Assembly: GCA_963815195.1 (NCBI GenBank)
Contig: CAWFGE010000013.1
Span: 480,001 to 544,000, forward strand
Direction: 5' to 3'
Length of the DNA stretch: 64,000 bases
From: an uncultured Planctomycetaceae bacterium
GTDB lineage: Bacteria; Planctomycetota; Planctomycetia; Planctomycetales; Planctomycetaceae
Under the pieces are notes generated by a model. That model had not been told where the DNA came from. It searched no databases and saw nothing but the letters and a program-made list of their open reading frames with translations. The translations under genes were made by a program, and so were the position numbers. Positions 47,522 to 64,000 of this stretch are shown here, in pieces. How positions within the stretch are numbered: position 1 is the first letter of the stretch; the number at the start of each line of letters is the position of its first letter.

Positions 47522-48061
47522 TTGGAGCAGCGTTTGACCACCACGAATGAGGTGCGAATCGATCCCGCCGTTATCGCGGCCTTGTACCTGGAACATGGCG
47601 ATGAACTGCGGGCATTTTTGGCCGGCGTGTTGAAAGACCACGATTTGGCCAACGAAGCCCTGCAAGCGACGTTCATCAAGGCTATGGAACACGGACACAA
47701 TGCGCGCGAGGAAACCCGCAAAGGGTGGCTGTTTCGGGTCGCATTTCACGAAGCCCTGGCCATCAAACGCCGCAACAAGATGTACGACAAAAACTTGCGG
47801 AAAATGGCCTGGAGCCGCCCGAACCCCGAAAACCATTCCCCCGACGACCGATTGTGCCGTTGGGAGACAATCGTCAATGTCCGAAACGCCTTGGACGAGT
47901 TGCCTGCCAACCAGCGGGAAGTGGTCCGGCTGCGAATTTATGAAGAAAAAACCTTCGCCGAGATCGCGGAGGAATTGAAGGTCCCGCTAGGAACCGTGCT
48001 CACCCGAATGCGGCTGGCCATGCGAAAACTCGAAACCCTTTTTGACACCAAGAAACACTGA
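47522..48061 (+). CDS. ECF-family RNA polymerase sigma factor
   Basis: Region 2 EALQATF..KGWLFRVA; region 4 LPANQREVVRL..TFAEIA..VPLGTVLTR. Confidence 0.9.
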   Translation: MEQRLTTTNEVRIDPAVIAALYLEHGDELRAFLAGVLKDHDLANEALQATFIKAMEHGHNAREETRKGWLFRVAFHEALAIKRRNKMYDKNLRKMAWSRPNPENHSPDDRLCRWETIVNVRNALDELPANQREVVRLRIYEEKTFAEIAEELKVPLGTVLTRMRLAMRKLETLFDTKKH

Positions 48062-48068
48062 GCAAACG

Positions 48069-48737
48069 ATGAACCCTCAAGACTCCCTCGCCCAAAACTT
48101 TTCAGAGGATTTGCCTTGGCTGGCATTTCTCTATGTGAGCGAGGATCTCACACCCGATGAAGCGGCCGATTTTGAAGAGCGGCTGCTCACCGACCAGGCG
48201 GCCCGCGAAGCGGTCGCCGAGGCGATGACGATGGCCGAGGGCCTGTGGATGGCAAGCGCGATGGATTCGCTGACGCCCAAACCGGAATCCGCCGACGCGA
48301 TTGCCCTGGAAACACGCCAAACCGCACGCCGCAAATCCCAAAGGCTGTCTTGGCTGGCATCCTCCGCGGCGCTGGCGGGGTTGGCATTTTTTGTGGGTTG
48401 GTGGGCGGCCCATCAGCATGTTTCGCCGCAAAAACCGGCTCCTTCGATCACGCACAATCCGCCCCAATCCCCGGCACCGGTTCCGCCGATTCCCGTTCCG
48501 CGAATCGTTCCCGAACTGGAGGGAGCCGGGCAGCTTGTGGAAATCTGGTCGGATTCGCAAACCCTCGTGGCGGAGCTGTTGACCGATTCTCCCGTTGCGG
48601 AATCGGCCGAGGAATTCCTCCCCCGCGAATCCGCCGAGCCCGAAGAAGACACCTTCGCCTGGATGCTGGCGGCCGTTTCCACGGACCGGCCGGAGGATGC
48701 CAACCCCCAACAGCCTTCCGCCGTGATGGAGAACTGA
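48069..48737 (+). CDS. Putative membrane anti-sigma factor
   Basis: Follows the ECF gene; N-terminal LAFLYVSEDL..E..FEERL domain; single TM. Confidence 0.7.
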   Translation: MNPQDSLAQNFSEDLPWLAFLYVSEDLTPDEAADFEERLLTDQAAREAVAEAMTMAEGLWMASAMDSLTPKPESADAIALETRQTARRKSQRLSWLASSAALAGLAFFVGWWAAHQHVSPQKPAPSITHNPPQSPAPVPPIPVPRIVPELEGAGQLVEIWSDSQTLVAELLTDSPVAESAEEFLPRESAEPEEDTFAWMLAAVSTDRPEDANPQQPSAVMEN

Positions 48738-48741
48738 TTCG

Positions 48742-49475
48742 ATGAGAAACCGTCTCCCGCGTCGGCCGGCTTTTTCCCGTTGGGGCGTTCCCGCGGTTCT
48801 GGTGCTGATCGCAAGTTGGGCATTTGCCCAATCCAATGAGGGCCAGGACGTTTCACCGAAGAACTCCAAACCGGGAACGACCGCGGCGAAACGCGCTGCG
48901 AGCACCGCCGGAGCGGACAAAGTGATTATGACTCCGGAGCGCCAGGCCGCGGCTCTCAAGTTCGCGGAGCTGCATCATCCCGAGCTTTACGAACTCTTGC
49001 AAAACCTCAAACAGGGCCGGCGGCCGGAATATCAACAAGCCGTCCGCCAACTGTACAACGACAGCGAACGCCTGGCCCGCATCAAGGAGCGCATGCCGAC
49101 GCGGTATCCGCTCGCCTTGACCGAGTGGCAGCTCGATTCCCGATTGCGTTTGCTCGTCGCCCGGATGACCATGTCCGTCGACGATCCCGATCTGGCGGCT
49201 GAACTCCAGGAGCTCTTAAAGAAACGCCTCGACGCCCGCTTGGAGCTTTTGAAGCTCGACCGGGAACGGCTCGCGGGCCGGCTGGCGAAGATGGACGACC
49301 AGATTCAGGCGATCGAAGAGGACCGAGACTCGGCCATCGAAAAAGATTTGCAGCGAATCAAGCGCAGTTTGGGACTCAATCAACGCAGCCCCAACCGGCG
49401 CAAGTTTCCGCCAAGAAAACCAACCCGCCCGATCAGACCAAACCCAAACCAGCCGCCCCGCAGAAGGGCGACTAA
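48742..49475 (+). CDS. Exported helical hypothetical protein (true stop probably TAA 49473-49475 after a frameshift ~49400)
   Basis: Signal peptide; coiled-coil-like region; alternative frame AKKTNPPDQTKPKPAAPQKGD* ends just before the MITE. Confidence 0.65.
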
Positions 49476-49606
49476 GGACGTGTTTGAAAATGTGAGCGGT
49501 AGGCGCTAGCCTCCGGTTTCGATGAAAGGTTACTCACAAAGTCAAGACCGGCGGCTAGCGCCTTGCCGCTCACGTTCCCAGGCGAATAAATGTTTCAAAC
49601 ACGTCC
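49476..49606. mobile_element. 131-bp MITE with 14-bp perfect TIRs and TAA duplication, enclosing a REP doublet
   Basis: GGACGTGTTTGAAA (49476-49489) / TTTCAAACACGTCC (49593-49606); TAA on both sides. Confidence 0.75.
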
Positions 49607-49725
49607 TAAACCCCGATGCCCAGCCGGAGGAACGGCGGACGCCTTTCCTCCCCCGCCGACTTGAACCTTACACACCGTTTGACCCACCTTCCGTTTGCAA
49701 CAAACACTCAGGGAGAAGTTCTTCG

Positions 49726-52461
49726 ATGAAACGTCTTGTTCTGACCACACTCGCCTTGGTTTCGCTTACAGTGGGAGCGTCCGCCGCCGACGGCGTGATT
49801 GCCCCCATCAGCGAACGCTTCGCACCGCCGAAGGACCAGATCAAAGAGGTGCCGGAATTCCGGCAGCACATCGTGCCCATGCTCGGCAGGCTGGGCTGCA
49901 ACGGGCGGGCCTGCCACGGCTCGTTCCAGGGGCAAGGCGGGTTTCGGCTGTCCTTGTTCGGTTACGACTTCAAAATGGACCACGACGGTCTCACCGGCGG
50001 CAAATATCCCCGCGTGGACCTCAAAAAGCCGGACGACAGCCTCGCGATTCAAAAGCCGACGATGGTCGATCCCCACGAAGGCGGCCTCCGCTATAAGCCC
50101 GGCTCGTGGGAACACAAGGTCTTCCTCCGCTGGGTCGAAGGCGGAGCCAAAGGCGTCGATGAAAACACGCCGGGCTTCGTCCGCCTGGACGTGACGCCCA
50201 GCGAAATCCAGTTCCAGCGCGCCGGAGACAAGACGCAGCTCAAAGTCATTGCCGTCTGGTCCGACGGTGCGCGGGAAGATGTGACGGCCCTCTGCCGGTT
50301 CCAAAGCAATAGCACCAGCGTCGCCGAGATTTCCAAAGAAGGCCTGGTGACCGCCGTCGATCCCGGCGACACGCACGTCGTGATTTCCTACGACACCGGC
50401 GTCGTGCCGATCCCCGTGATTCGGCCCGTCTCGAAGCTCGCGGGAGCGAAATACCCGAAAGTTCCCACGCCGACCAAAGTCGACGAACTCGTGGTGCAAA
50501 AGCTGCAGAAGCTGGGCATCGTGCCCTCGGAGCTTTCCGATGACGCCGAGTTCCTCCGCCGGGTCTCTTTGGACATGACCGGCACGCTGCCTTCGCCTTG
50601 GGAAGTTGAAAAGTTTCTCGCCGACGGCTCGCCCGACAAGCGGGCCCGCAAGATCGACGAGCTTCTGGAAAGCCCCGCCTACGCCGCGTGGTGGACCACG
50701 AGACTCTGCGACATCACCGGGAACAACGACGACAACTTGAACAATGTCACCCCAGTCCGCTCCGCGGCCAGTCAGGAATGGTACGACTGGATCCACAAAC
50801 GGGTTTCGGAAAACACGCCTTACGATGAACTCGTCGCGGGGATCGTGCTTTCCCAGAGCCGAAACAAAGGCGAAGACTTCAAGACCTATTCCAAAAACAT
50901 GAGCGAAATGTATCGCAAAGGGTCGAAAGCCAACTTCGCGGAAGATCGCGAAACCATGCCCCACTACTGGGCCCGGCGGAACTTCCGCCAGCCGGAAGAG
51001 CGCGTGATCGGCTTCGCCTACACGTTCATGGGCATTCGCATCCAGTGCGCCCAATGCCATAAGCATCCCTTCGATCAATGGACCCAGGACGACTTCAAAG
51101 AGTTCACCGGGTTCTTCACCAACGTGCGGTCCGGCACCAATCCCGAATCACGCGACGAATACGACGAGATGCTCGCCGCCCTCGATCTGGGCGAAAAGAA
51201 GGGCAACCAACTCCGAAGGGAGTTTCCGCGGCTGATCAGCGAAGGCAAAACCGTGCCCTTCCAGGAAGTGTTTTCCACCAAGGCCCGCGCCCGGGGGAAT
51301 AACAACCGCAACAAAAACGCCCGCAACCGTAACGCGACCTCCGTCACCGCGAAGCTGCTGGGCGGGGAAACGGTCGATCTCACGAAGTACGAAGACGCCC
51401 GCGAACCGTTGATGGCCTGGCTGCGGGCAAAAGACAATCCCTACTTCGCGAAGGCGTTCGTCAACCGCGTCTGGGCCGGTTACTTCAAGGTGGGCATCGT
51501 CAATCCGCCGGACGACTTGAGCCTCGCCAATCCGCCCTCCAACAAAGCCCTGCTCGATTATCTCGCCCAAGGCTTCATCGACCACGGCTTCGACATGAAG
51601 TGGGTGCACCGCGAAATCGCCAACAGCCGCACCTACCAGTTGACCTGGAAACCGAACGAAACCAATCGGCTGGACGAAATCAACTTCAGCCATCAAGTGC
51701 CCCGCCGGTTGCCCGCGGAATCGGCGTACGATGCGCTCGTCCTCGCGACCGCATCCGATGCGACCGTCCGCAAACTGCACGAAGAACTCGACGACCGGGC
51801 GATTGCGATTCCCGGAGCCGGCCGCCGCGGACGGGGCGGTTCGAGCTATGCCTTGACGATCTTCGGCCGCTCGATTCGCGAATCCAACTGCGACTGCGAC
51901 CGCTCCGAAGAAGCCAGCCTCTTGCAAACCGTCTTCCTGCAAAACGACCGCGAAGTCTTAAGCATGATCGACGACCGCAGCGGCTGGTTGGCTCAGGTCT
52001 CGAAGGAATTGAACACCCGCTTTGTGCCGCAGACTCAGCCGCAACCGGGCGGAAACGATCGCGGCCGCGTGAGCCGCCAGCAGATCGAAGCCATCCAAAA
52101 ACGGTTGGCCAAAGATGAAAAAGAACTGAAGGCCCTGAAGAAAGCCGGCAAAGACCAACAGGCCGAAGAACTCGAGCGCCGCGTGAGCCAGATCAAAAAA
52201 CGGCTCGCCGTGGTCCGCAAAGGTTCCGAACCCCAAAAGTCGCCGGCGGGACAAGCCCAGGAGAAAGGCGAAAAAGTCGCGGAGCTCAATGCCGACCAGA
52301 TCATCAAAGAAGCCTACCTCCGCACGCTGAGCCGGTATCCGACGGACGAAGAACTCAAGCGGTCCCGGCAATACATCGACGGCAACGATGACACGATCAA
52401 CGGCATCCGCGGGCTCTTGTGGGCCTTGGTCAACACCAAGGAGTTCATCGTGAACCACTAA
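49726..52461 (+). CDS. DUF1549/DUF1553 planctomycete protein with Ig-like domain and CxxCH-type motifs
   Basis: Signal peptide; GCNGRACHG, FLRRVSLD.TG.LP, IQCAQCHKHPFD.WTQ, NPYFAKAFVNRVW, WALVNTKEF. Confidence 0.9.
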   Translation: MKRLVLTTLALVSLTVGASAADGVIAPISERFAPPKDQIKEVPEFRQHIVPMLGRLGCNGRACHGSFQGQGGFRLSLFGYDFKMDHDGLTGGKYPRVDLKKPDDSLAIQKPTMVDPHEGGLRYKPGSWEHKVFLRWVEGGAKGVDENTPGFVRLDVTPSEIQFQRAGDKTQLKVIAVWSDGAREDVTALCRFQSNSTSVAEISKEGLVTAVDPGDTHVVISYDTGVVPIPVIRPVSKLAGAKYPKVPTPTKVDELVVQKLQKLGIVPSELSDDAEFLRRVSLDMTGTLPSPWEVEKFLADGSPDKRARKIDELLESPAYAAWWTTRLCDITGNNDDNLNNVTPVRSAASQEWYDWIHKRVSENTPYDELVAGIVLSQSRNKGEDFKTYSKNMSEMYRKGSKANFAEDRETMPHYWARRNFRQPEERVIGFAYTFMGIRIQCAQCHKHPFDQWTQDDFKEFTGFFTNVRSGTNPESRDEYDEMLAALDLGEKKGNQLRREFPRLISEGKTVPFQEVFSTKARARGNNNRNKNARNRNATSVTAKLLGGETVDLTKYEDAREPLMAWLRAKDNPYFAKAFVNRVWAGYFKVGIVNPPDDLSLANPPSNKALLDYLAQGFIDHGFDMKWVHREIANSRTYQLTWKPNETNRLDEINFSHQVPRRLPAESAYDALVLATASDATVRKLHEELDDRAIAIPGAGRRGRGGSSYALTIFGRSIRESNCDCDRSEEASLLQTVFLQNDREVLSMIDDRSGWLAQVSKELNTRFVPQTQPQPGGNDRGRVSRQQIEAIQKRLAKDEKELKALKKAGKDQQAEELERRVSQIKKRLAVVRKGSEPQKSPAGQAQEKGEKVAELNADQIIKEAYLRTLSRYPTDEELKRSRQYIDGNDDTINGIRGLLWALVNTKEFIVNH

Positions 52462-52469
52462 GGCGTTCG

Positions 52470-52541
52470 GCCCCTCACCCTAACCCTCTCCCCCAAGGGG
52501 AGAGGGGATAAGACGGAACTCACCCTCTCCCCCAAGGGGAG
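52470..52541. repeat. REP (CCCCTCACCCTAACCCTCTCCC...GGGAGAGGG family), 1.5 copies
   Basis: Hairpin CCCTCTCCCC-CAA-GGGGAGAGGG followed by a partial copy. Confidence 0.7.
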
Positions 52542-52626
52542 GACGGACAAAACTGAGTATTTTTGAAACCAACGGCTTTCTTCAGCCAATTTTTGAAAAC
52601 ACCTTCTTTTTCAAAGGAATTGCTTC

Positions 52627-53935
52627 ATGGCCATTCATCAAACTTGCGACGGAATGAAACGACGGGATTTCCTGAAAGCCGGTGCCTTGGGCGCGGGCGG
52701 GCTGACCTTGTCCAGCTATCTCCAACTGGCCCAAGCCGGCGATGTCCGCGATGATGCCCCCGCCAAAGCCGCGATCTTCATCAACCTCACCGGCGGCCCG
52801 ACGCACATGGACACCTTCGACTTGAAGCCGGACGCCCCGGCCGAGTACCGCGGGTTGTTCAATCCCATCAAGACCAACGTCGACGGCATCGAAATCTGCG
52901 AGCATATGCCCAAGCTCGCCCAGACGATGGATAAGTTCGTGATCCTCCGCGGCGTGTCCCACACTTTGGGGGCCCACCAACTGGGAACCGAATACGTCAA
53001 CACCGGCAACCGGCCGCTGCCTTCGATCGAATACCCCGGCTACGGTGCCGTGGCGACGAAAGAAGCGAAAACCATCGAACCGGACCTGCCCCCGTTCGTC
53101 TCCGTGGGCAACTCCAACCAGAAGCCTGGCTTTCTGGGCGTGAAATACGCGGCCCTCAACACCGGCTCCACGCCGCGCCGGGCAACCGTTCAGCGTGCGG
53201 GGCATCACCCTGGGCAACGGCGTCACCATCAAAGAAATCGAAAAACGCCAAACACTCTTGGGCGATCTCGACAAGACCTTCCAAGGCTTCGAAAAGGACA
53301 GCCAACTCCTCGAAGGCCTGGATCAGTTCGGCGAGCAAGCCTACGCGATGATCACCTCCAAGCGGGCCCGGGAAGCCTTCGACACCAGCAAGGAAGATCC
53401 CGCCTACGCCGCGCCGTTCGGCGATTCGCCCTTCGGGATGAGCTGCCTCCTCGCCAGCCGGCTCGTGGAAAGCGGCGTGCGGTTCGTCACCTTGACTTTG
53501 GGCGGTTGGGACACCCACCAAAACAACTTCTCCAAGCTGAAGGACAGTTTGCTGCCCACGCTCGACGCCGGCTTGTCCTCGCTGTTTAGCGGGCTTGCTC
53601 AAAAAGGCCTGCTGGAATCGACGGCGATCTTCGTCACCGGCGAGTTCGGCCGCACGCCGAAAATCAACAACCGCAGCGATCCGGGCGGCCGGGACCACTA
53701 TCCCCGCTGCATGTTCATGCTCCTGGCGGGCGGCGGGATCAAGGGCGGCCAGGTCATCGGCAAAAGCGACGACAAAGCCACCCAACCGGCCGACGAAGTC
53801 ATCACCCCGGACGACGCCGCGGCCAGCTTCTATTACGCCTTGGGCATCGATTCCAAGAAAGAATACCACACCAACATCGGCCGCCCGATCACGATCGTCC
53901 GCAACGGCAACGTGATCGAAAAACTGTTTGGATGA
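52627..53935 (+). CDS. DUF1501-family protein (frameshift ~53175)
   Basis: KRRDFLKAG, LTGGPTHMDTFD.KP, RLVESGVRFV, WDTH, GEFGRTPKIN, GRDHY. Confidence 0.9.
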
Positions 53936-53967
53936 TTGGTCCGTCGTCCTGCTGATTTTTGAAATTG

Positions 53968-54011
53968 AAAACAGGCTCCGGGGAGTTCTTCACCTCGGAG
54001 CCTGTTTTTTT
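53968..54011 (+). terminator. Intrinsic terminator after the DUF1549/DUF1501 operon
   Basis: ACAGGCTCCG...CGGAGCCTGT stem followed by a T-run. Confidence 0.8.
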
Positions 54012-54151
54012 GTCAAAGGCCGGACTGCTGACAACGGACGACCAGATTTCCCCCCAGGAATCCCTTGCGTCTCGGCCTGGGGGCGATACACTGATGTGGA
54101 TAATGTCGTCTCGAATTGCCCACACGGATTGCGTTTCCAAGGGGGGAAACA

Positions 54152-56435
54152 GTGGCTCAGGTGTTGATGCTGCCTGCGGAACTGGAGGAAATCACCGATC
54201 CACCGCAGGAAGAGGATGAACTCTTAACGGCTGACGAACTCGATACAATTTCGCTGTTCTCGTCGCTGCAAAAAGGCGGGCCGGATTTTCGCCGGTTTCC
54301 GAGCACGACGGTTCTCCGCCGCTGCCGGAAGGGGCGGGTGATTTGCGAGCAGGGCGAAAGCGGCTCGACGGCGTATTTCATTTTGACGACCGAGGATGTG
54401 CTCAAGCTTCGCGAGGTGCAAAAGAGCCTGTTGGAAGCGACGATCCAAGGCAAGGTCGAGGGCAAGCCGGAGTTCGAGCTGCATCCGTATTTCGTCCGGT
54501 ATACGCCGGCGGAACTCGAAGACCGGCTCGCCGAAGTCACCCAGGAAATCGCCGAGCTCAAACAGCGGCTGCATACGCTGCCTCCCTTGGAAGGCGAAAA
54601 CGGTCCGCAGCGGGAAGTGGCCGCGGCGCACCTGTTCGTCAATTTGGATGGCGAGAAAAAGCGTAAAGGCCTCTTGCACCGGATGTTTTCGAAACTCGGC
54701 GGCGGGAAACGGAAACGCCGGATGAATCCCGCGAACATCCTCATCGACGGCCCGGCCGTCATCAGCTCCGCAGACGCTCCGGGGCCCGTTGCACGAAGGG
54801 GAACTCCTGGGCGAGATGAGCTGCATGAACCGGGCCCCGCGGTCGGCCACGGTGCTCGCCGAGCAAGAGTGCTATATGCTGGAAATGCTTCGCAACGTGC
54901 TGGACATGCTGCAGAAGGATCAGGCGTATAAAGAGCGCACGGACGCCATGTACCGCAAGCGGGTGATGGAAACGCACGTCCGGCGGCTCTCGGTGTTTGA
55001 GAATCTCGGCGACGAGGATTTCGAGAAGCTCAAGCAGGCCATCGAACTGGTGGAGTTCGAGTCCGGGCAGACGATCTTCGAGGAAGGCGAACCTTCGGAT
55101 TGTTTCTACGTGATCCGCAGCGGATTGGTGAAGGTCATCAAAAACGCCTGGTACGAATTCCGCAAGGAAGAGTTCCAAGACGAGCATTGGAAGAATCTCG
55201 CCCAGGAATTCGACGACGCGAACGACGAAGACGCCGACATGCGGCAGGCCGTCAAGGAGATGCTCTCCGACGAAGCCCAAGCCGCCTTGGGGGCGGCCAA
55301 GAAAGGCGGAAAGCTCTCCGACGAACATCAGCAGGCGCTGATCGGAAGTCTGAACGAGTTCATCCGCGACGCGAAGCTGCACGAGCAGCTTGGCAAAACC
55401 CGCAAAGAGGTTTTGGAGGTCATCCGCGGGCCGCAGTTGGAAGTCACCATCGCCGAGTATGCCAAGGAAACCAAGAAGTGGTCGGTGCTCGAGTACCGCA
55501 TCTTCCACCGGGCGCTGTTGGAGCGGCTGTTTCCCGGCGGCCTCCCCCGCCAGTTGGAAAAAGCGGGGCCCAGGCGGACGCTGGCCTATTTGGGCCGGGG
55601 GGAGATCATCGGGGAAATGGGCGTGTTTACGGATCCGCCCAGCGCCCGCAGCGCGACATGCGTGGCTTACGACCATCCCGACAGCGGGTTCCAACAGCGG
55701 ATTCCCGACGGGCGGATGGGCGCGGTGCCGTCGCGGGTCGAATTGGTCAAAATCAAGCGGGCCGAGTTCCAGCAGATGCGAAAATCCTCGCCCGCGATCG
55801 ATGCGAAGATCCGCGATTTGATCACGATTCGGAAATTGCAACAGGCGGAAACACAGGACCTGCGGATCGGCGAGTCGGCGGGGATTGCCCCCCAAAGCCG
55901 GGAGTTCGAGCGGCTGGGCCTGATCCAGGGCCAGAAGCTGATGCTGATCGACCTGGACCGCTGCACCCGCTGCAATGCCTGCGTAGAAGCGTGCGTCGCG
56001 TCGCACGAAGACGGCCGCACGCGGTTGTATTTGGACGGCCCGCGGTACGACAAGTTTCTCGTCCCCTTGACCTGCCGAAAGTGCCTGGATCCCGTGTGCA
56101 TGATCGGCTGCCCGGTGGGTTCGATCAATCGGGGCGAGAACGGAGAGATCGTCATTCGGGACTGGTGCATCGGCTGCCGGATGTGCGCCGAGCAGTGCCC
56201 GTACGGCTCGATTCAAATGAACGAACTGCGGACGCCCATCGAATTGACGCTGGAGCAAAAGACGATCATCGGGCCGGAGGCGACGCTCAAAGCGGTCGGC
56301 GAGCAAGCGGTGGTTTGCGATTTGTGCAGTTCGCTGCCCAGCAAGGATCCGTCGTGCTGCTACGCCTGCCCGCACGATGCCGCCTTCCGCGTCAACGCTC
56401 AGGAGTTTTTCTTCCAGGACAGTGGGAAAGCGTAA
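54152..56435 (+). CDS. Tandem cyclic-nucleotide-binding + 4x[4Fe-4S] (DmsB/NrfC-like) protein (frameshift ~54765)
   Basis: cNMP motifs ICEQGE..GEMS..PRSATV and IFEEGE..GEMG..ARSAT; Cys groups CTRCNACVEAC, CRKC..C..CP, CIGCRMCAEQCP, CDLC..C..ACP; GTG start after AGGGGG. Confidence 0.85.
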
Positions 56436-56436
56436 T

Positions 56437-56582
56437 GGCGAGCGGGGGGGCGTGAGTCCCCTGGTTCTGTGAAAACGCTGAATTCACCGATGAATGGAAT
56501 GCCTTCCACATGAAAACCCCTAAGAGATCCCGGATCTTGAGAGACTCGCGAATGACCAGGGGGCTCACGCCCCCCGCTCGCC
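56437..56582. repeat. REP-like inverted pair inside the operon
   Basis: GGCGAGCGGGGGGGCGTGAGTCCCCTGGT ... ACCAGGGGGCTCACGCCCCCCGCTCGCC. Confidence 0.75.
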
Positions 56583-56601
56583 TGAGCATAAAGGAACTCG
56601 C

Positions 56602-58759
56602 ATGCTGATCGATCGAACACAACGGACGTGGGCTTGGATTTCGTTCCTCATCTTCCTGGCCGCGACGGGAAGCTATGCCGTCTATGCCGCCACCGTCCCC
56701 AACGGGCCCCACGGCGGCAGCGTGATGGGGCTGATCTACGGGATCATCGGCACCGCGTTTATGGTCTTCGCCGGGCTCTTGGCCGCGCGCAAACGCGTCC
56801 CGCATTGGCGATTGGGCAGCGGCCAATTCTGGCTCCGCGGGCACCTTTGGCTGGGCACCTTGAGCATGCCGCTGATTTTGTACCACGCCGGCTTCGGCTG
56901 GGGCGGGCTATTGGAAAACGTGCTGTGGGTGCTGTTCGGGCTGGTGTTTTTCAGCGGGCTTTACGGCATCCTGGTGCAGCAGGTTTTGCCGCGGATCCTC
57001 ACCACCCGCGTGCCGCTCGAAACCTTCCCCGCCCAGATCCCTTATCAGTGCCAGCGGATGCAGTTTCTGACGGACCATCTGGTCGCGGAAAGCTGCGGGA
57101 AGCTCGACATCCACGATGAGCCGATCTTTCAGACCTTCAAGAAACTCGCCGAGTTCGGAGCGACGGCCGGCCGGGACGAACTTCCCAACTGGCCCGACCA
57201 GGTTCCCGAGGAATTGCGAGGCTTGCTTTTGGATCTTTCCACGCACTGCAAACAACAGGGCTGGATCAGCCAGGTCAATAATTTCCCCAAAATGCTGTCC
57301 GAGATGTATAAGGATGTCGAACCGGAAGAGGCTCCCAAAAAGGCCGCGGCCAAAAAAACAGACGCCGGCGAGAAAAAGCCTTCGCCCCTGGACCAGATGA
57401 AAGCCAAGAAAAAGGCGGCCCCCGCGGAAGGGGCGGAGAAAAAGCTCTCGCCCCTGGAGCAAATGAAGGCCAAAGCCGCGAAGAAGAAAGCCGCCGGAGA
57501 CGAAGGCGGCGAGAAGAAAGCCGCCGAAGGAGGCGGGGAAAAGAAGCTATCCCCCCTCGAGCAGATGCGCGCGAAAGCCGCGAAGAAAAAAGCCGCCGAA
57601 GAGGGAGGGGCCGAAAAGAAAGCCGCGGAAGGCGGCGGGGAAAAGAAGCTTTCCCCCCTCGAGCAGATGCGCCGCGAAAGCCGCCGCCAAGAAGAAATCC
57701 GCCGAAGAAGGAAGCGGATCAGAAGCCAAAAAGCCGTCGCCTTTGGAGCAAGCCCGGGCTCAAGCCGCGGCCAAACAGGGAGGCAACGGGGCAAGGCCGT
57801 CGCCTTTGGAATTGGCCCGCGAGCAGGCGGAGGGCGCGGGCGAATTGGCGGGCATGGCTCCCGAAGACTCCGGGAAGACGATCAACTTTTCTCCCGAGCA
57901 AGCGGCGATCCTCGCCAACGCGGCCCAGGAGCGGCAAGCCAACGGCAGCGGCGAAGCGGCTCAGGAAGGCCCGATCATCGTCCCTTGTCCCGAATGCGAG
58001 CACGAGTTGAAACTGCCCGACCGCAGCCTGCTCGGACGCAAAGCCCGCTGCCCGATGTGCAGCTTCAAATTCATCCTGGAGCTTGCCGAGGAACCGGAAC
58101 CGGAACCGGTGGCCGTGGGCGCCGCGGTGGCGGAAGCAGGCCCGTCCCCATTGAAGCAAGCCATGATGCAGGATGCCGGCAAGCCCGCCCAAAAGCCCGC
58201 GGGCAAAATGTCTCCCCTCGAGCAGATGCGCGCCAAAGCCAAGAAAAAGACCGCCGCCGGCGGGGGAGGCGGAGGCACGGCGACCGCCGAGAAACCCATG
58301 TCGCCCATCGAAAAGATGCGGGCCTCCAAAGCGAAAAAAGCCGCCCCCGCCGCCAAGAAGTCCAAAAAGAAAGCCACGCTCAAGGTCCCCAAAAAAACCA
58401 AGAAAACCTACACCGGCCCGATTCCCCGGGCAGGCGAACTCCGGCAATTCTACCTCCAGCAAATCCGGCCGTTCCTGGGCGTCGACAGCCGCTATAACCC
58501 CCAACTGGCCATCGACGCCCAGTCCAAACGGCTGTTCAACCAGATGCGGTCCGAGTTGCCCGGCGAACTGCACGACACCCTCAATCAACTCGAAGATTCC
58601 GTGGACGAGCGCCGGCAGTTTTCGCTGCAAAGCCGGGTCCATCATTGGCTGCACTGGTGGCTGTATCTGCACATCCCCCTGTCGATGGCGCTCTATCTCC
58701 TCGTCATCGCCCACATCGTCATGGCCCTCATCGTCGATCCCCAACTGTTCTGGGGCTGA
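56602..58759 (+). CDS. Integral membrane protein (cytochrome b/ferric-reductase-like His pattern) with internal Lys/Ala-rich repeats and a zinc ribbon (frameshift ~57670)
   Basis: WLRGHLWLG...LILYHAGF; C-terminal WLYLHIPLS...IAHIV; SPL(E/D)QM repeats; CPEC-x17-CPMC. Confidence 0.75.
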
Positions 58760-58833
58760 TGCGGGGCGGAAGGTCGTCTATTGGTCATTGGTAACAGGTC
58801 ATTGGCAACAGGTCATTGGGATTTATCTAAACC

Positions 58834-60521
58834 ATGTCGCAACCGCGTTACAGCCGGCAGTTGTCCGGACGAGTGGAAGTTGAGTTTCATCACCACCCCA
58901 ACCGTTTCCGCCGCTTCACGTGGTGGTCGGCTCTGGTGTGCGTGATTGGCGCGGGGGTCTGGCTGGTCCAGGCGGGGACGCGGGGCGAAAACCGCATCTA
59001 CGAAGCCGGTGCCGTCGCCACCCCGCACGCCATGTTCGAGAACGAATGCCAGCGCTGCCACGTCAACAATTGGGCCCCGCTTCAGCGGCTCACGAGCTTC
59101 ACCGACCAGGTGCATTCCGTGACCAACGAAAAGTGCATCGCCTGCCACATGGGCACGCTGCATCATCAGAATCAGGTGCCGGTGCACGGGGACGGCCCGA
59201 ACGAGTTGTCCTGCGCCAAATGCCACCGGGAACACAAAGGCGACGAAGAACTGGCCCGCGTGACGGACCGCCATTGCACCGACTGCCACGGGAATCTGGA
59301 AACCTCGCCCGGCGCCCGACGTTCGCCAAGCACGTCTGGAGTTTCGAAGTCCCCGAGGGCCATCCGGATTTCAAAATCGAAGAACTCCTCAAGAAGAAGG
59401 ATGGCAACGTCGACATCGCAGAGTCGGATGGCAAACCGATCCACTATGCGTTTCGCGTGCTGGGGTTTTTCTCCCGCGACGGCGAACCCGCCCGCTGGCA
59501 AGACAAGGCCCGCATTCGCTTCAACCACAAGGCCCACCTCAAAGCGATGTTCGACAAGAAGGGCAACCGCATCAAAGGCGAACGCCAGGATGACATCCGC
59601 CACCGCGGAGGCGACAAGGACGGCGAATACATCGGCTATCCGGGAAGCTGCATGGACTGCCACGAGTTCGACGTGGAACGCCGCTATATGAAACCCATCG
59701 TTTACGAGAAACATTGCCAGGAATGCCATCCCCTCACGTTCGACGTGGATAAGTTCACGGAGCAAATCGACCCGGCCACCGGGGAGGCCAAAAAGGTCGC
59801 CGTCACCGTGCCCCACGATCGGACCGACGTGGTGCGGGGGTATCTCTCGAAGGTGTATACGATCGACCCGCTGGGGGAGAAAGCCGACGGGCCAAAGCCG
59901 GCGGAGGACGACCCGCTCGCCGAGCTTCGGCGGGGCTTTCCGGGGCGGGATTTCGAGGCGAGCTTCAACGCCGAAGAGGCCCGGAAGATCCGCGAAAAAC
60001 TCGGCGAGCAGGAAAAAGCCTTGTATCCGCTCGACTTCGTGAAGAACGAACTCGTGCGCCGGGAAGGTCAGAAGGTGCTGTTTAAGGAAAACGGCGCGTG
60101 CGCGCTGTGCCACGACATCGATAAGTCCGAGGACCCGAAAGAGCAGCCGTGGTCGATCGTTTCCCCGCAGATTCCCGACCGTTGGTACAAGCACAGTTGG
60201 TTCCGGCACGACAGCCACCGCATGTTGAGCTGCGTAGAATGCCACAACGACCTCATCAGCGGGCATCCCGTTTACGAAAGCGCCAGCACCGGCGACGTGT
60301 TAATGCCCACCCGCGCCTCGTGCGTCCAGTGCCATCGCACCGGTTTTGTCGAGAAGATCGGCGATAGCGATGTGCACCTGCTTGGGGCCCGCGTGGATTG
60401 TGTGGAATGTCATGGATACCATGATTACAGCAAAGAAGACTTCGACGGGAATCTGAAATTGGATTTGACACGTCAAGAAGAGAAATCCCTTACGACACCG
60501 GCGGGCCACGGATCGAAATAA
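58834..60521 (+). CDS. Membrane-anchored 10-heme c-type cytochrome (frameshift ~59310)
   Basis: One N-terminal TM; CQRCH, CIACH, CAKCH, CTDCH, then CMDCH, CQECH, CALCH, CVECH, CVQCH, CVECH. Confidence 0.85.
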
Positions 60522-60738
60522 ACGCTTAGACACCGGCGAATTCCGGACGGGCTTTGCGTGCCTCTTGCGCGCGCCCGTTTGCCATTATTTCCATCGCCGT
60601 GCGAATTGGCCGAGGTCGGACATTCTCCCAAGACGCACGTTACCGATTGGCAACCGATCACGGGCTCATCAGGGGGGATGTCTCGGCCCTCCGCCTTGGC
60701 GGTTCAATCGAAATATCATGAATCGTGGGAATCAAACT

Positions 60739-62290
60739 ATGGGACGTAACCTCGGTCGGCTTTTGATCTGTGTCCCGCCGGCTTTGGCTCTGGGGCTGTT
60801 CTTCCTGGGGGATCGCTCTGCGGGCATCGAACCCGATCCCGGCATCCGCGTTGCATCGGCCACGTCGGATTCCGGTCAGCCCGGCGTCATCCTGCCCGGC
60901 GACTTCGGCGCATCGGGATTATCGGGGCCGAGGTACGTCGGAGCGGCGGGATGCGCGGCGGCGAGCTGCCACGGCGGGGACGGTCTCAAAGGCACCCTGG
61001 GCAGCGAGCACAGCATTTGGATTCAAAAGGACCCGCACGCCGGAGCTTACGCGGTTTTGCTCAATCAGCAGTCCCAGAACATCATCAAACTCCTGAAGAA
61101 CTCCCCGCATTACGCCAAAAGGCTCGAAGGCCGCGAGGCCCACGAGACGCGGTTGTGCCTCGACTGCCATTCGGTCGCCCCCGATGCGTCCCAGTTGGCC
61201 GAGGCGCATAAGTTTTCCCTCCGCGACGGCGTGAGCTGCGAAGGTTGCCACGGGCCGGCGGAAAAATGGCTCGATCCCCACAAGCGCTACGATTGGAAAC
61301 TCAAATCGGACGACGAGAAAGCCGCCCTCGGGTTTTGGAATACCGACAACTTGTTGACCCGCGCGGATTTGTGCCGACTGCCACATCGGGTCGAAAGACC
61401 GCGAAGTCAACCATGACCTGATGGCGGCCGGGCATCCGCGTTTGACCTTCGAGATGGCGGCGTACTTCAGCAATCTGCCCCCGCACTGGAACGCGAACGA
61501 AGACCGCCATCGGCACAAGGCGTTCGAGGCCAAGCTGTGGGCGATCGGCCAGCTTGCCGTGGCGGAGAATTCCGTCGAACTCCTCAAAGAACGGGCGGAA
61601 GACAAACAGTACAAAGTCTGGCCCGAGTTCACCGAATACGGCTGCTACGCCTGCCATCACAATCTCCAGCCCAGCAACTGGCGGCAAGAACGCGGCTTCG
61701 CGGGTCGCCGGCCCGGTGGTTATCCCTGGGGCACCTGGCAGTTCCCGGTGCTGGCGATGGTCTCGCCCGAACTCGCGGCCGGTGAACCGAACCCATTTTT
61801 GAACGACAACAGCGTCTATGAAAAACTCAAAAAGGAAATGAGCCGGCCGCTTCCCGATCGAGACAAAGTCAAGGACCTCGCGGGCCAGATGCAGGCGGAG
61901 TTGGACAAGATCGCGGTGCATTTGAATCAGATGTCCCTTTCCGAGCCGGAAATCTTATCTCTCTTACACAAGGTCGCGGGTCCCGAGGGCGGGCAGAAGC
62001 TCGTGGGACAAAACTGGGACGCCGCGGCCCAGGTTTACCTGGCGACGGTGGCGCTCTATCAAGGCCTCGCGGATGTGGAGGGCCGGGCCGGGCAGATTTC
62101 CGATCGGGACAAAGCGATTTTCGAGCATTTCCAGGCCATCCGGAACAATTTGAAATTTCCCGAAGAAAAACCGGACAAGGGCAAAGCGGTGATTTACAAT
62201 AGCCCCAAGACTTTTGAAGAGACCGCGCCCAATCCTGTGGAAGCGATCAAGAGCCAGTTAAGCGGCATCAATCAAGCTGTGCAGCCATAA
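60739..62290 (+). CDS. Cytochrome c554-like multiheme protein, 5 hemes (frameshift ~61360)
   Basis: YVGAAGCAAASCH, DPHAGAY, CLDCH, GVSCEGCHG, CADCH (second frame), AAGHPRL, CYACHH. Confidence 0.85.
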
Positions 62291-62305
62291 AATAAGGATC
62301 AATCC

Positions 62306-64000
62306 ATGTCGAAGCGACGCCTCGTCAATCGCTGTTTGATGGGTGCCGTACTGGCCGTGCCCAGCGCGCTGTTAGGCATCTATTCATTAGGCTACGCCCA
62401 AGAACCCCCGGCCGGGACCTCGCTCTACCAACCCGCCCCAGTGCTGCGCATTGCGCAAGCGGATCCGGAGCCGGCTGCCGACAAAAGCGATCTGGCAAAG
62501 TGGGACGTGCCCGGCGGGATGGCATTGGATCCGGATGCGAAGAAGCGATTGTACTTGGGGCTCGCTGATAGTTGCATCAATTGCCATACACGCAATACCG
62601 CACCCCCCGCCCCCAATGCGCCCCAAATTCGAATTCCAGGATTTCCCGTCGTGACGAATGATGGATGGGCCTTATTGAATGAATCGTACACCTGGGCGGG
62701 GCAAGACAAACATTATGGGTCGTACGCCGTACTTCTCAACGACCGTTCGAAGCGAATGGCTCAAATCTTAAAAATCGTGGATGACGAAGGAAACTCGATC
62801 ATCCATCGCGATCTTCGCTGTATTGCTTGTCATTCAGGAATGCCGATTTATGAGATGAAGCGAGATGAAGGTCGTCCAGGAATGATCGACGAGTCCATGG
62901 TGCAGGATAAACGCTTGAGTTTCGGCGTGAGTTGCGAAGGATGTCATGGGTCAGCGGGGGACGCCGATTCTAATGATAAAATTAAGAGTTGGGTCTCTAT
63001 CCATACCTCGAAAACCGAGTGGCGATATAAAGATCCCCACACGAAGGCAGACGAATATGGTTATTTCGATGTACGTTCACCGGTGTCTCGAAGCAGGATG
63101 TGTCTTTCCTGCCATGTTGGTAATGTGCATGAAGGGCGCGTTGTGACACATGAAATGTACGCCGCTGGACATCCTCCCTTGCCCGGATTTGATGTGGAGA
63201 CGTTTTCTCAACAGGAACCCGCACACTGGCGTAACTTCCATGAAAAACCCAAAAAAATTCGGGACGAGTTTTTAGAGAGCACCAAAACATGGCGAACCAC
63301 GGAATGGAATGAAACCGACCTGCACAACACGAGGGATCTCTTGATCGGCGTCCTGGTCAACTTGAGCGAAATGCTAAAACTCAACGCCAACTTGGCCGAT
63401 TCCGATGTGAAGATCCCCATTGGAAGTAAGACGTGGCAGAGTGACGGGAGCCAACAGTGGCCCGAGCTTGCCCAGTTTGCGTGTTACGCTTGTCATCATG
63501 ATCTGCGCGGCGACGGGTGGCGGATTCAACGGACTCCGATCGGCGTTCCAGGCCGTCCACCTCTCCAGGAATGGCCGTTTGCTCTGACAAAACTCGCCGT
63601 GAAATCCACGGGATCCAATCACGAGGAGCTGTTAACGCTGATTGAAAAAGTGAAACAGGCCGGCGTCGACGGCCCGTTCGGCAACCGTGAGGACTTGAAG
63701 ACCCTGGGGCCCAAATTGGCCGCGCAACTCGATGCCGTGGCAAAGGAATTGGAGCAACGGAACATTCCCAGAGAAGCTGCTCAGCCGTTGCTGCTGGATC
63801 TCATCGAACTCGCTGAAAAGGAAACGTTGGATTACGATTCCGCCCGTCAGTTGGTCTGGGCCTTTCGGGTCATCTATGACGACTGGAAGCGAGACCCGAA
63901 TGACAAGAAAGACTTCTTCGAAATCAAGAAAATTGACGAGGTTCCAGGCTGGTATAGTGCGACGGATAATTTAACCGGTGTCAAGCAGATTCTTGCTGGG
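62306..64000 (+). CDS. Second cytochrome c554-like 5-heme protein (3'-truncated; absent from ORF track)
   Basis: Manual translation from ATG 62306 is open to the window end: signal peptide, CINCH, DKHYGSY, CIACH, GVSCEGCHG, CLSCH, AAGHPPL, CYACHH. Confidence 0.85.
   Translation, partial: MSKRRLVNRCLMGAVLAVPSALLGIYSLGYAQEPPAGTSLYQPAPVLRIAQADPEPAADKSDLAKWDVPGGMALDPDAKKRLYLGLADSCINCHTRNTAPPAPNAPQIRIPGFPVVTNDGWALLNESYTWAGQDKHYGSYAVLLNDRSKRMAQILKIVDDEGNSIIHRDLRCIACHSGMPIYEMKRDEGRPGMIDESMVQDKRLSFGVSCEGCHGSAGDADSNDKIKSWVSIHTSKTEWRYKDPHTKADEYGYFDVRSPVSRSRMCLSCHVGNVHEGRVVTHEMYAAGHPPLPGFDVETFSQQEPAHWRNFHEKPKKIRDEFLESTKTWRTTEWNETDLHNTRDLLIGVLVNLSEMLKLNANLADSDVKIPIGSKTWQSDGSQQWPELAQFACYACHHDLRGDGWRIQRTPIGVPGRPPLQEWPFALTKLAVKSTGSNHEELLTLIEKVKQAGVDGPFGNREDLKTLGPKLAAQLDAVAKELEQRNIPREAAQPLLLDLIELAEKETLDYDSARQLVWAFRVIYDDWKRDPNDKKDFFEIKKIDEVPGWYSATDNLTGVKQILAG

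Follow-up and report, generated by a model that had tools for sequence, protein, structure and literature searches.

A planctomycete version of the ptd/PCC4 gene cluster as a candidate NADH-to-envelope electron conduit with a predicted cyclic-nucleotide switch

Five genes at the end of a 64,000-nucleotide stretch of an uncultured Planctomycetaceae genome (here called the window) form what is, judged by homology and gene order, the ptd/PCC4 cluster in a planctomycete variant; the cluster is already in print. PCC4 was named in 2017 by He et al. (PMC5566968), and the ptdABCDEFG operon by Elbon et al. (bioRxiv 10.1101/2023.11.21.568154), with its function stated as unknown in the accessible part of that preprint. 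An earlier note on this DNA, made from the letters alone, had called the system uncharacterised; this holds for the function, but not for the gene set, which carried the names PCC4 (2017) and ptd (2023-24). On the basis of domains, motifs, homology to ptdE-F-G, conserved order, and co-occurring partners, we somewhat favor the reading that the five genes encode an NADH-to-envelope electron conduit across the inner membrane, with cAMP binding predicted as its switch.

Gene content and boundaries of the locus

The five co-oriented genes occupy the + strand from 54152 to 64189, after a strong hairpin that carries a T run (53967..54012, + strand; -30.5 kcal/mol, z -6.5), as the earlier note had described. 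This intrinsic-terminator-like hairpin, missed by a terminator pattern scan and detected by folding energy, closes an upstream ECF sigma/DUF1549-1553/DUF1501 cluster. A promoter scan remained at chance level. The expectation that the operon continues downstream did not hold: gene 5 stops 189 bases beyond the window, at 64189, and is followed in the adjoining sequence by a convergent multiheme gene (64265-68767, outside the window) encoding a 1500-aa, 10-heme LVIVD protein. Between genes 1 and 2 lies a short palindromic repeat (56540..56590), with 71 blastn matches across the genome and a pile-up of public contigs, which is probably irrelevant to function.

Each of genes 1-4 contains one frame break. 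Three of the four, at 54768 (gene 1), 57672 (gene 2), and 61359 (gene 4), are absent from public contigs (one contig per break, depth 2-3.5). The window stretch is present in a soil sequencing run; among the runs listed as containing it there was no RNA run, which leaves expression without evidence for or against. The gene 1 break is also absent from four relatives, and a conserved or programmed frameshift in this gene was ruled out because break positions differ among four congeners. The gene 3 break lies at about 59307-59319, where the relatives' gene is intact.

Gene 1 (54152..56435, + strand; about 760 aa) encodes a PtdE-type protein with two cNMP-binding domains followed by a DmsB/HydN-type Fe-S domain (Pfam cNMP_binding, 4e-21, plus Fer4 families; cysteines at 55962-56370). 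Its 16 cysteines are invariant among 12 aligned relatives, and their DmsB/HydN pattern points to four [4Fe-4S] sites. With zero membrane segments predicted, this agrees with the cytoplasmic fusion of two cNMP domains and a four-cluster ferredoxin claimed before. Both cNMP domains are interrupted by long helical insertions, and both contain the phosphate-binding cassette G-E...R-S/T (GE..PRSAT at 54810, GE..ARSAT at 55611). Across the family, the first motif has G and E in 86/86 proteins and R in 67/86; the second is poorly kept (E 49/86, R 32/86) and is intact in the window protein. We found no output domain (DNA-binding, kinase, or cyclase) in the E proteins. Some E proteins of relatives bear an FHA domain, and lone E paralogues without partner genes are seen in loci L022 and L023. 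Insertions in E and F proteins are large and variable among relatives; a relative that is 55% identical is on record from Thalassoroseus pseudoceratinae.

Gene 2 (56602..58759, + strand; about 720 aa) encodes the PtdF/PCC4 inner-membrane protein. It carries two WX3HX13H motifs (56830 and 58658), an SGXXG motif (56953), and five predicted helices, with four conserved His on helices 3 and 5, consistent with the polytopic membrane protein with paired His read from the letters, and is predicted to hold two b hemes. Among its relatives, 79/83 have both WX3HX13H motifs and 70/83 have SGXXG. It also contains a CxxC..CxxC finger and a long insertion of SPLEQ repeats rich in Lys/Ala. Weak Pfam matches among the 83 membrane proteins (E 0.05) are to Ferric_reduct (11), cytochrome b561 (9), and DUF4405 (32); for the first membrane protein, the Ferric_reduct match lay under the cut-off. 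A fold search with the membrane-protein model of a relative (L017, pLDDT 87) returned generic helical bundles only (best Z, 9.6), and no clear solved relative of this five-helix type was found. Complex prediction for the E and F proteins of L017 scored 0.58 versus 0.00 for the best control, with agreement between runs in 63% of contacts and a partner pLDDT of 68. This lends weak support: the score mark is reached by 116/157 solved pairs and 2/215 mismatched pairs, and those reaching it at 0.60 or below include 18/157 solved pairs and both mismatches.

Genes 3-5 together contain 20 heme motifs (19 CxxCH and one CX4CH), in agreement with the earlier count of at least 20 c-heme sites and with the membrane-anchored decaheme and two exported c554-like proteins proposed there. 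Gene 3 (58834..60521, + strand) encodes a PtdG-type decaheme cytochrome c that carries 10 CxxCH and is anchored in the membrane at its N terminus; it shows only weak matches to the DmsE family. Gene 4 (60739..62290, + strand) encodes exported pentaheme 1, with 4 CxxCH and the CX4CH with which its c554 (PtdD-like) domain begins; its fifth heme is a CxxCH in an added helical domain. Its paralogue, exported pentaheme 2 (627 aa; 5 CxxCH, c554 type), is encoded by gene 5 (+ strand, 62306..64000 in the window). Both pentahemes have a hydrophobic N terminus and an N-terminal four-heme domain matching cytochrome c554 (6e-9). The PtdD profile also matches both (4e-11 and 4e-8), with the fifth heme and extra domain in addition; their identification as PtdA was ruled out, as the PtdA profile matches neither. 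The CxxCK active-site heme (NrfA type) is absent, and in 24-25/25 relatives each of the five motifs has His as its last residue. Conserved spare His number 11 for the 10 hemes of the decaheme and 6 for the 5 of the pentaheme, which speaks for wire-like hemes. A fold search with the pentaheme 2 model (pLDDT 71) gave no clear match, with c554 at Z 5.7, and a PDB sequence search with this protein alone returned nothing useful.

Homologous loci and co-occurring partners

Window genes 1-3 have blastp matches to E, F, and G in loci that show the complete A-B-C-D-E-F-G order (L044, L045, L055, and L074), and profiles from which the window clade was left out recognize them at 1e-75, 1e-28, and 1e-30. 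In full-order loci, gene B resembles porin clusters and gene A (tested on L034) matches PDB 5ze8, named as a PtdA relative in the accessible text of Elbon et al. (bioRxiv 10.1101/2023.11.21.568154). Gene order is conserved: E-F-G-c1-c2 recurs in 5 loci of one set and in 11/14 window-type loci of another, one of these 11 having F detected only by a separate search. The core occurs at 562 or more sites among species-representative genomes and in 36/91 genomes of the host family. In the host genome (94.6% complete), we did not find the PtdA pentaheme with its C-terminal beta-sandwich (by profile), the PtdB porin, or the PtdC FAD/NAD(P) oxidoreductase, whose best match sits in an nqr-type operon. 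From their published descriptions, we infer that PCC4 and ptd represent the same system; the name PCC4 does not appear in the accessible text of the ptd preprint, and "cyclic" is absent from the main text of PMC5566968. Literature searches, with most subscription journals outside their coverage, returned descriptions of the cluster only in these two papers; bioRxiv 2022.05.06.490989 is, in its accessible part, unrelated to it.

On the input side, we surveyed the best 80 of at least 562 loci, ranked by likeness to one query, among which kin are not independent (as also among the genomes counted below). These 80 encode PtdC (41 loci), a NuoE/F fusion (10), or a TrxB-like FAD-FHA-2Fe2S protein (11), with zero overlap, and 50/53 of those with at least 14 kb contain exactly one of the three NAD(P)H flavoproteins. 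The E gene of NuoEF-type loci forms a fusion with a NuoG-like Fe-S module, and a quick tree, subject to a long-branch warning, places this type as sister to the window clade. The window variant has none of these flavoproteins in its operon, and the TrxB-FHA and NuoEF input types were not found in the host genome. An NDH-2/cNMP fusion is present in 15/18 window-type genomes (and not found in 3/18), in 5/18 other core genomes, and in 1/55 genomes without the core. Its gene adjoins the operon in L017 and L114 and lies unlinked to it, on contig C4, in the host. The missing catalytic partner reported earlier is indeed absent from the operon; it does not follow downstream, where it had been sought, and candidates lie elsewhere in the genome.

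On the output side, the LVIVD protein and a probable barrel occur in the same 29/91 family genomes, all with the core, including 18/18 window-type genomes and 0/55 without the core. The 7 core genomes that lack the pair all have PtdB, and a single cluster is seen in genome G074. Because of this co-occurrence, we assign the LVIVD protein to the system. The host's barrel, on contig C15, is a probable outer-membrane barrel judged from strand pattern and C terminus only. It gave no significant alignment with PtdB (1.8%) and has no Pfam match. PDB searches with the barrel profile and the LVIVD sequence returned nothing useful, and the LVIVD protein matches ExtM of a selenite/tellurite operon weakly (2e-17, far below the cut-off). 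Next to the barrel, another possible barrel (L109:14005) showed no match with that of L017. The verrucomicrobial porin-cytochrome cluster of PMC5615132, as described in its accessible part, may or may not equal the barrel/LVIVD pair.

Cyclases lie near the core in 14/80 loci (12 recognized by Pfam and, with a profile made from these, 2 more) and in 12/53 loci of at least 14 kb, both within the best 80 of at least 562; the background is 3.0% of random 20-kb windows of one genome, the host's. None is labelled in the 14 window-type loci, nor in L001, L015, L016, and L025-L027. A class II phosphodiesterase is found inside L018. The anatomy, together with the flavoproteins, cyclases, and phosphodiesterase of relatives, speaks for the cNMP-linked transmembrane electron path of the earlier note, with gating by a nucleotide as a predicted feature.

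Proposed electron path and competing readings

In the favored conduit, NADH would reduce a flavoprotein (in this genome, probably the NDH-2/cNMP fusion encoded on contig C4), which would pass electrons directly or via quinone to the four [4Fe-4S] clusters of the gene 1 protein; NDH-2 enzymes normally reduce quinone, a route that would bypass the Fe-S protein. From these clusters, electrons would reach the two b hemes of the gene 2 protein, the anchored decaheme (gene 3), and the two pentahemes (genes 4 and 5), and finally the 10-heme LVIVD protein and probable outer-membrane barrel, for transfer to the final acceptor. Binding of cyclic nucleotide in the tandem domains would shift the Fe-S domain against the membrane subunit. 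The switch, the outward flow, and the acceptor in this scheme are inferred.

Multiheme wires run in both directions, and an inward conduit would use the same parts: a donor outside the cell, such as Fe(II) or reduced humics, would feed barrel and cytochromes, then the membrane protein and quinone, the Fe-S protein passing some electrons to NAD. Such flow is modelled for PCC4 of iron oxidisers in the accessible part of He et al. (PMC5566968). We regard it as unlikely for the window system, given that four distinct NAD(P)H flavoproteins serve as partners and that core hosts span many phyla. Transfer from NADH to c hemes is downhill outward, we know of no NDH-2 working in reverse, and many of the host phyla are, to our knowledge, not known for iron oxidation.

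A sensor, in which the hemes would inform the Fe-S protein, and through it cyclic-nucleotide and Ser/Thr signalling, of the redox state of the envelope at small electron flux, would suit the neighboring cyclases, phosphodiesterase, kinases, PP2C, and FHA proteins, the FHA domains and partnerless paralogues of E, and the variable insertions in E and F. This appears improbable in view of the missing output domain in E, the 30 heme sites and flavoprotein, a large outfit for a sensor, and the near-obligate flavoprotein partner (the 50/53 long loci within the best 80 of at least 562). Slightly less likely still is a periplasmic terminal enzyme, with vestigial cNMP domains, whose pentahemes or LVIVD protein would use electrons from quinol to reduce a small molecule, either a nitrogen oxide or an oxyanion. 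The kinship to cytochrome c554, the faint ExtM likeness, and nitrogen cycling, raised in the accessible text of Elbon et al. (bioRxiv 10.1101/2023.11.21.568154), favor it; CxxCK is lacking, however, conserved His suffice for all sixth positions, conservation of the first nucleotide motif extends across phyla, and a second cNMP protein co-occurs.

Extending the export reading, we tentatively propose a widespread, modular, cAMP-switched electron-export machine, with one conserved core (cNMP/Fe-S protein, di-heme membrane protein, and decaheme), four interchangeable flavoproteins supplying NAD(P)H electrons, two interchangeable outer-membrane modules, and, in the window variant, nucleotide switches on both the Fe-S protein and NDH-2. 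If true, the second messenger would bypass transcription and control a respiratory wire directly. Direct cAMP allostery on an electron-transfer chain, not found in our literature searches (most subscription journals outside coverage), would surprise bioenergeticists. Swappable input and output modules make flow direction concrete and testable, with cultured planctomycetes and verrucomicrobia as test hosts, for a core whose function both naming papers left open despite at least 562 occurrences.

Comparison with known systems

Gene 1 shares the 16-cysteine pattern of the four-cluster subunits DmsB, NrfC, and HydN but differs by its fused tandem cNMP domains and by an operon without molybdopterin or hydrogenase partner. 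The gene 2 protein resembles ferric-reductase-domain (NOX, MsrQ) and cytochrome b561 di-heme proteins in its HX13H pairs and weak Pfam matches, whereas its five helices with a cytoplasmic helical insert set it apart. The pentahemes share the N-terminal four-heme domain of Nitrosomonas cytochrome c554 (PDB 1bvb) and add a helical domain with the fifth heme. As in MtrCAB-type porin-cytochrome conduits, a heme chain leads towards a barrel; here, the barrel matches nothing in Pfam or PDB.

As far as the accessible text of the preprint describes it, ptd resembles the window system in its E-F-G series of a cNMP plus 4Fe-4S protein, a ferric-reductase-like membrane protein, and a decaheme, in its c554-type partners, and in listing Planctomycetes among its hosts. 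The window system differs in having no PtdA, PtdB, or PtdC, two five-heme PtdD-like proteins after G, long insertions in E and F, and four clusters in E by cysteine count versus two stated for ptd; the ptd hosts given there are marine or saline, whereas the window stretch was matched in a soil run. PCC4 subgroup II, in the accessible part of its description, likewise has an inner-membrane protein bearing SGXXG plus a pair of WX3HX13H motifs, an Fe-S gene directly upstream, and a decaheme. PCC4 combines a porin with 4-, 5-, and 10-heme proteins in one cluster, whereas the window system has 5-, 5-, and 10-heme proteins and an outer module of another type elsewhere in the genome.

Anatomy and conservation of the operon

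The window belongs to contig C13 in a genome of 8.9 Mb (94.6% complete) and, as the earlier note had described, carries five + strand genes after a terminator-like hairpin. DUF1549/1553/1501 genes upstream and the annotations of close homologues indicate a planctomycete. Gene 1 (54152-56435) encodes cNMP and 4Fe-4S domains, in which 16 cysteines stay unchanged across an alignment of 12 rows, gene 2 (56602-58759) a membrane protein with four histidines in two WX3HX13H motifs, gene 3 (58834-60521) a decaheme with 10 heme motifs, and genes 4 (60739-62290) and 5 (62306-64189) pentahemes with five motifs each, one of those in gene 4 being CX4CH. The domain fusion, the paired histidines and the count of at least 20 c-heme sites thus stand; the last gene does cross the window end, but the operon stops at 64189. 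Genes 1 to 4 contain one frame break apiece, most likely assembly errors: the breaks lie at other positions in congeners, every gene is whole in some relative, and three of the four are absent from public contigs (single low-depth contigs; run X1 is possibly the source sample).

Genes 1 to 3 match, by sequence and profile comparison, E, F and G of four loci (L044, which ends after F, L045, L055 and L074) with the gene order of ptdABCDEFG, named by Elbon et al. (bioRxiv 10.1101/2023.11.21.568154), whose products are described there as, in order, a pentaheme, a porin, an FAD/NAD(P) oxidoreductase, a tetraheme, a cNMP/4Fe-4S protein, a ferric-reductase-like membrane protein and a decaheme. Gene A of this locus family matches the c552 structure cited in that preprint. 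The window pentahemes match the profile of the tetraheme PtdD, with a fifth heme and an extra domain in addition; the PtdA profile hits neither of them, and that assignment was rejected.

The earlier note had staked its reading on conservation as a unit, and the five-gene order is retained in five loci of one relative set and in 11 of 14 window-type loci of another. Homologues of intact gene 1 measure 724-803 aa (best 120 of 347). A species-genome scan yielded at least 562 confirmed relatives, the best 80 of which, being best matches to one query and not a random sample, come from Planctomycetota, Verrucomicrobiota, Acidobacteriota, Gemmatimonadota, Bacteroidota, Ignavibacteria and Proteobacteria. 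The membrane protein alone comprises 2313 clusters (E 0.001); among 91 genomes of the family, 36 encode it (E below 1e-40), 18 of these in the long window type. Several genomes (G031, G104, G074, G062 and G079) have two copies, one short and one long.

Other features were observed in and around these genes. A short palindromic repeat with about 70 genomic copies separates genes 1 and 2 (56540-56590). The membrane protein contains a long Lys/Ala/Glu-rich insertion (~57330-58400) with a CxxC..CxxC finger and SPLEQ-like repeats (8 in this protein and as many as 13 in its relatives), whose Ser-Pro pairs could, as a guess, be phosphorylation sites; kinase genes are often found close to the cluster. 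On contig C12, downstream of a kinase gene, lies a third paralogue of the pentahemes, its fifth CxxCH lost (L028:9615-11540). Two congeners have lone gene-1 paralogues of 1100-1200 aa whose surroundings include neither membrane nor heme genes (L022:10581-13907 and L023:10843-14433), and locus L130 has two tandem copies. The region 47522-53935 holds an ECF sigma factor, a probable anti-sigma factor, and DUF1549/DUF1553 and DUF1501 genes, a typical planctomycete cluster that is frameshifted too.

Flavoproteins, LVIVD protein and barrel

Among the 80 loci, we observe PtdC in 41, a NuoE/F fusion in 10 and a TrxB-like FAD-FHA-2Fe2S protein in 11, never two per locus; of the 53 loci at least 14 kb long, 50 contain one. 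In the NuoEF type, gene E begins with a NuoG-like Fe-S module and is therefore tied to an NADH-oxidising unit. Window-type operons have no flavoprotein inside; the two exceptions are L017 and L114, in which an NDH-2 with a fused cNMP domain adjoins the operon. In the window genome this fusion stands alone on contig C4 (L110:7448-9169), its C-terminal cNMP domain having an intact cassette. NDH-2 in its long form, at E below 1e-130, occurs in 15/18 window-type, 5/18 other core and 1/55 core-less genomes, types being assigned by eye (ambiguous G039 counted as other); as kin are not independent, we give no P value for this.

The earlier note suggested looking downstream for a flavoprotein, cyclase or porin. 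The next gene, convergent on the - strand at 64265-68767, past the window end (L001:10266-14768), instead encodes a 1500-aa protein with LVIVD repeats, nine CxxCH and one CX4CH and no PDB match; the NDH-2/cNMP fusion and a barrel candidate lie elsewhere in the genome. The LVIVD protein is confined to core genomes among the 91, and it shares the same 29, including 18/18 of the window type, with a 947-aa protein from contig C15. All seven core genomes without this pair have PtdB, and six window-type genomes have both. Of the 80 loci, 16 carry the LVIVD gene and 21 carry PtdA/B, and none carries both. The C15 protein is probably an outer-membrane barrel, because its last 547 residues form 15 alternating strands (5-7 in soluble controls) and its C-terminal residue is aromatic; sequence comparison did not show homology to PtdB. 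It has HEAT repeats at its N-terminus, and its gene is divergent from one for a 1117-aa protein that combines a peptidase M10 domain with an HbpS-like (heme-binding) one (L109:6860-13756); both families recur near the cluster in other phyla. In genome G074, the barrel, LVIVD, HbpS-like and five operon genes form one cluster.

Proposed electron path and nucleotide control

Hydropathy, a relative's model and charged loops suggest that the two histidine helices of gene 2 run parallel, as in ferric-reductase domains, presumably with one heme on each membrane side; spare histidines suffice for bis-His ligation. This topology places the Fe-S protein in the cytoplasm, with the decaheme anchored outside and the pentahemes exported. 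When E and F of L017 were modelled as a complex, the score was 0.58 against 0.00 for the control, which is weak support: of 157 true pairs 18 scored in this range, as did both of the false passes, and Fe-S/cytochrome b pairs of this kind may pass because the predictor already knows such complexes.

On balance we lean, by a small margin over even, towards a conduit that carries electrons outward from NADH to the envelope and is controlled by cyclic nucleotides. The same proteins might take up electrons inward or act as a redox sensor, both improbable to a similar degree; slightly less probable again is a periplasmic terminal enzyme in which the cNMP domains are vestigial. The G-E...R-S-A-T cassette is intact in both cNMP domains of gene 1; in a set of 86 relatives, conservation is good for the first cassette and poor for the second.

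As for nucleotide control of the conduit, class III cyclases are present in 14/80 loci and 12/53 long loci, against 3.0% of random 20-kb windows from this genome only, and in L018 a cyclase is accompanied by a class II phosphodiesterase. Speaking against the link, no cyclase was seen beside window-type operons of the family at the loci examined, and the 13 cyclase domains and the phosphodiesterase of the window genome all lie away from the operon. Lys/Asp-type motifs in some linked cyclases point, though not firmly, to cAMP rather than cGMP. Far from the operon, near 1.20 Mb of contig C13, an FHA/cyclase gene in pieces precedes a class II cAMP phosphodiesterase (L112:7663-10367).

Relation to ptd and PCC4

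What is probably the same cluster was described earlier as PCC4 (He et al., PMC5566968). Alongside a porin and proteins with 4, 5 and 10 hemes, PCC4 has a membrane protein of five helices that bears SGXXG plus two WX3HX13H motifs, and an Fe-S gene lies upstream of that protein's gene. The earlier note's "uncharacterised" therefore holds for function, which Elbon et al. state to be unknown, but not for the gene set, already named twice. In the literature searched, we found neither the PCC4-ptd link nor a paper on the NDH-2/cNMP partner, and likewise nothing on four exchangeable flavoproteins, an LVIVD/barrel alternative to PtdAB or the cyclase association.

Membership of the five genes in the ptd/PCC4 core appears very likely. 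Because genes 1 to 3 match E, F and G while searches of the genome turned up no PtdA, PtdB or PtdC, the operon reads as a variant of this published core and not the full operon. The supplements of both papers may hold similar variants; by the published descriptions this operon shares the E-F-G core with ptdABCDEFG and differs from it in that no A, B or C was detected in its genome.
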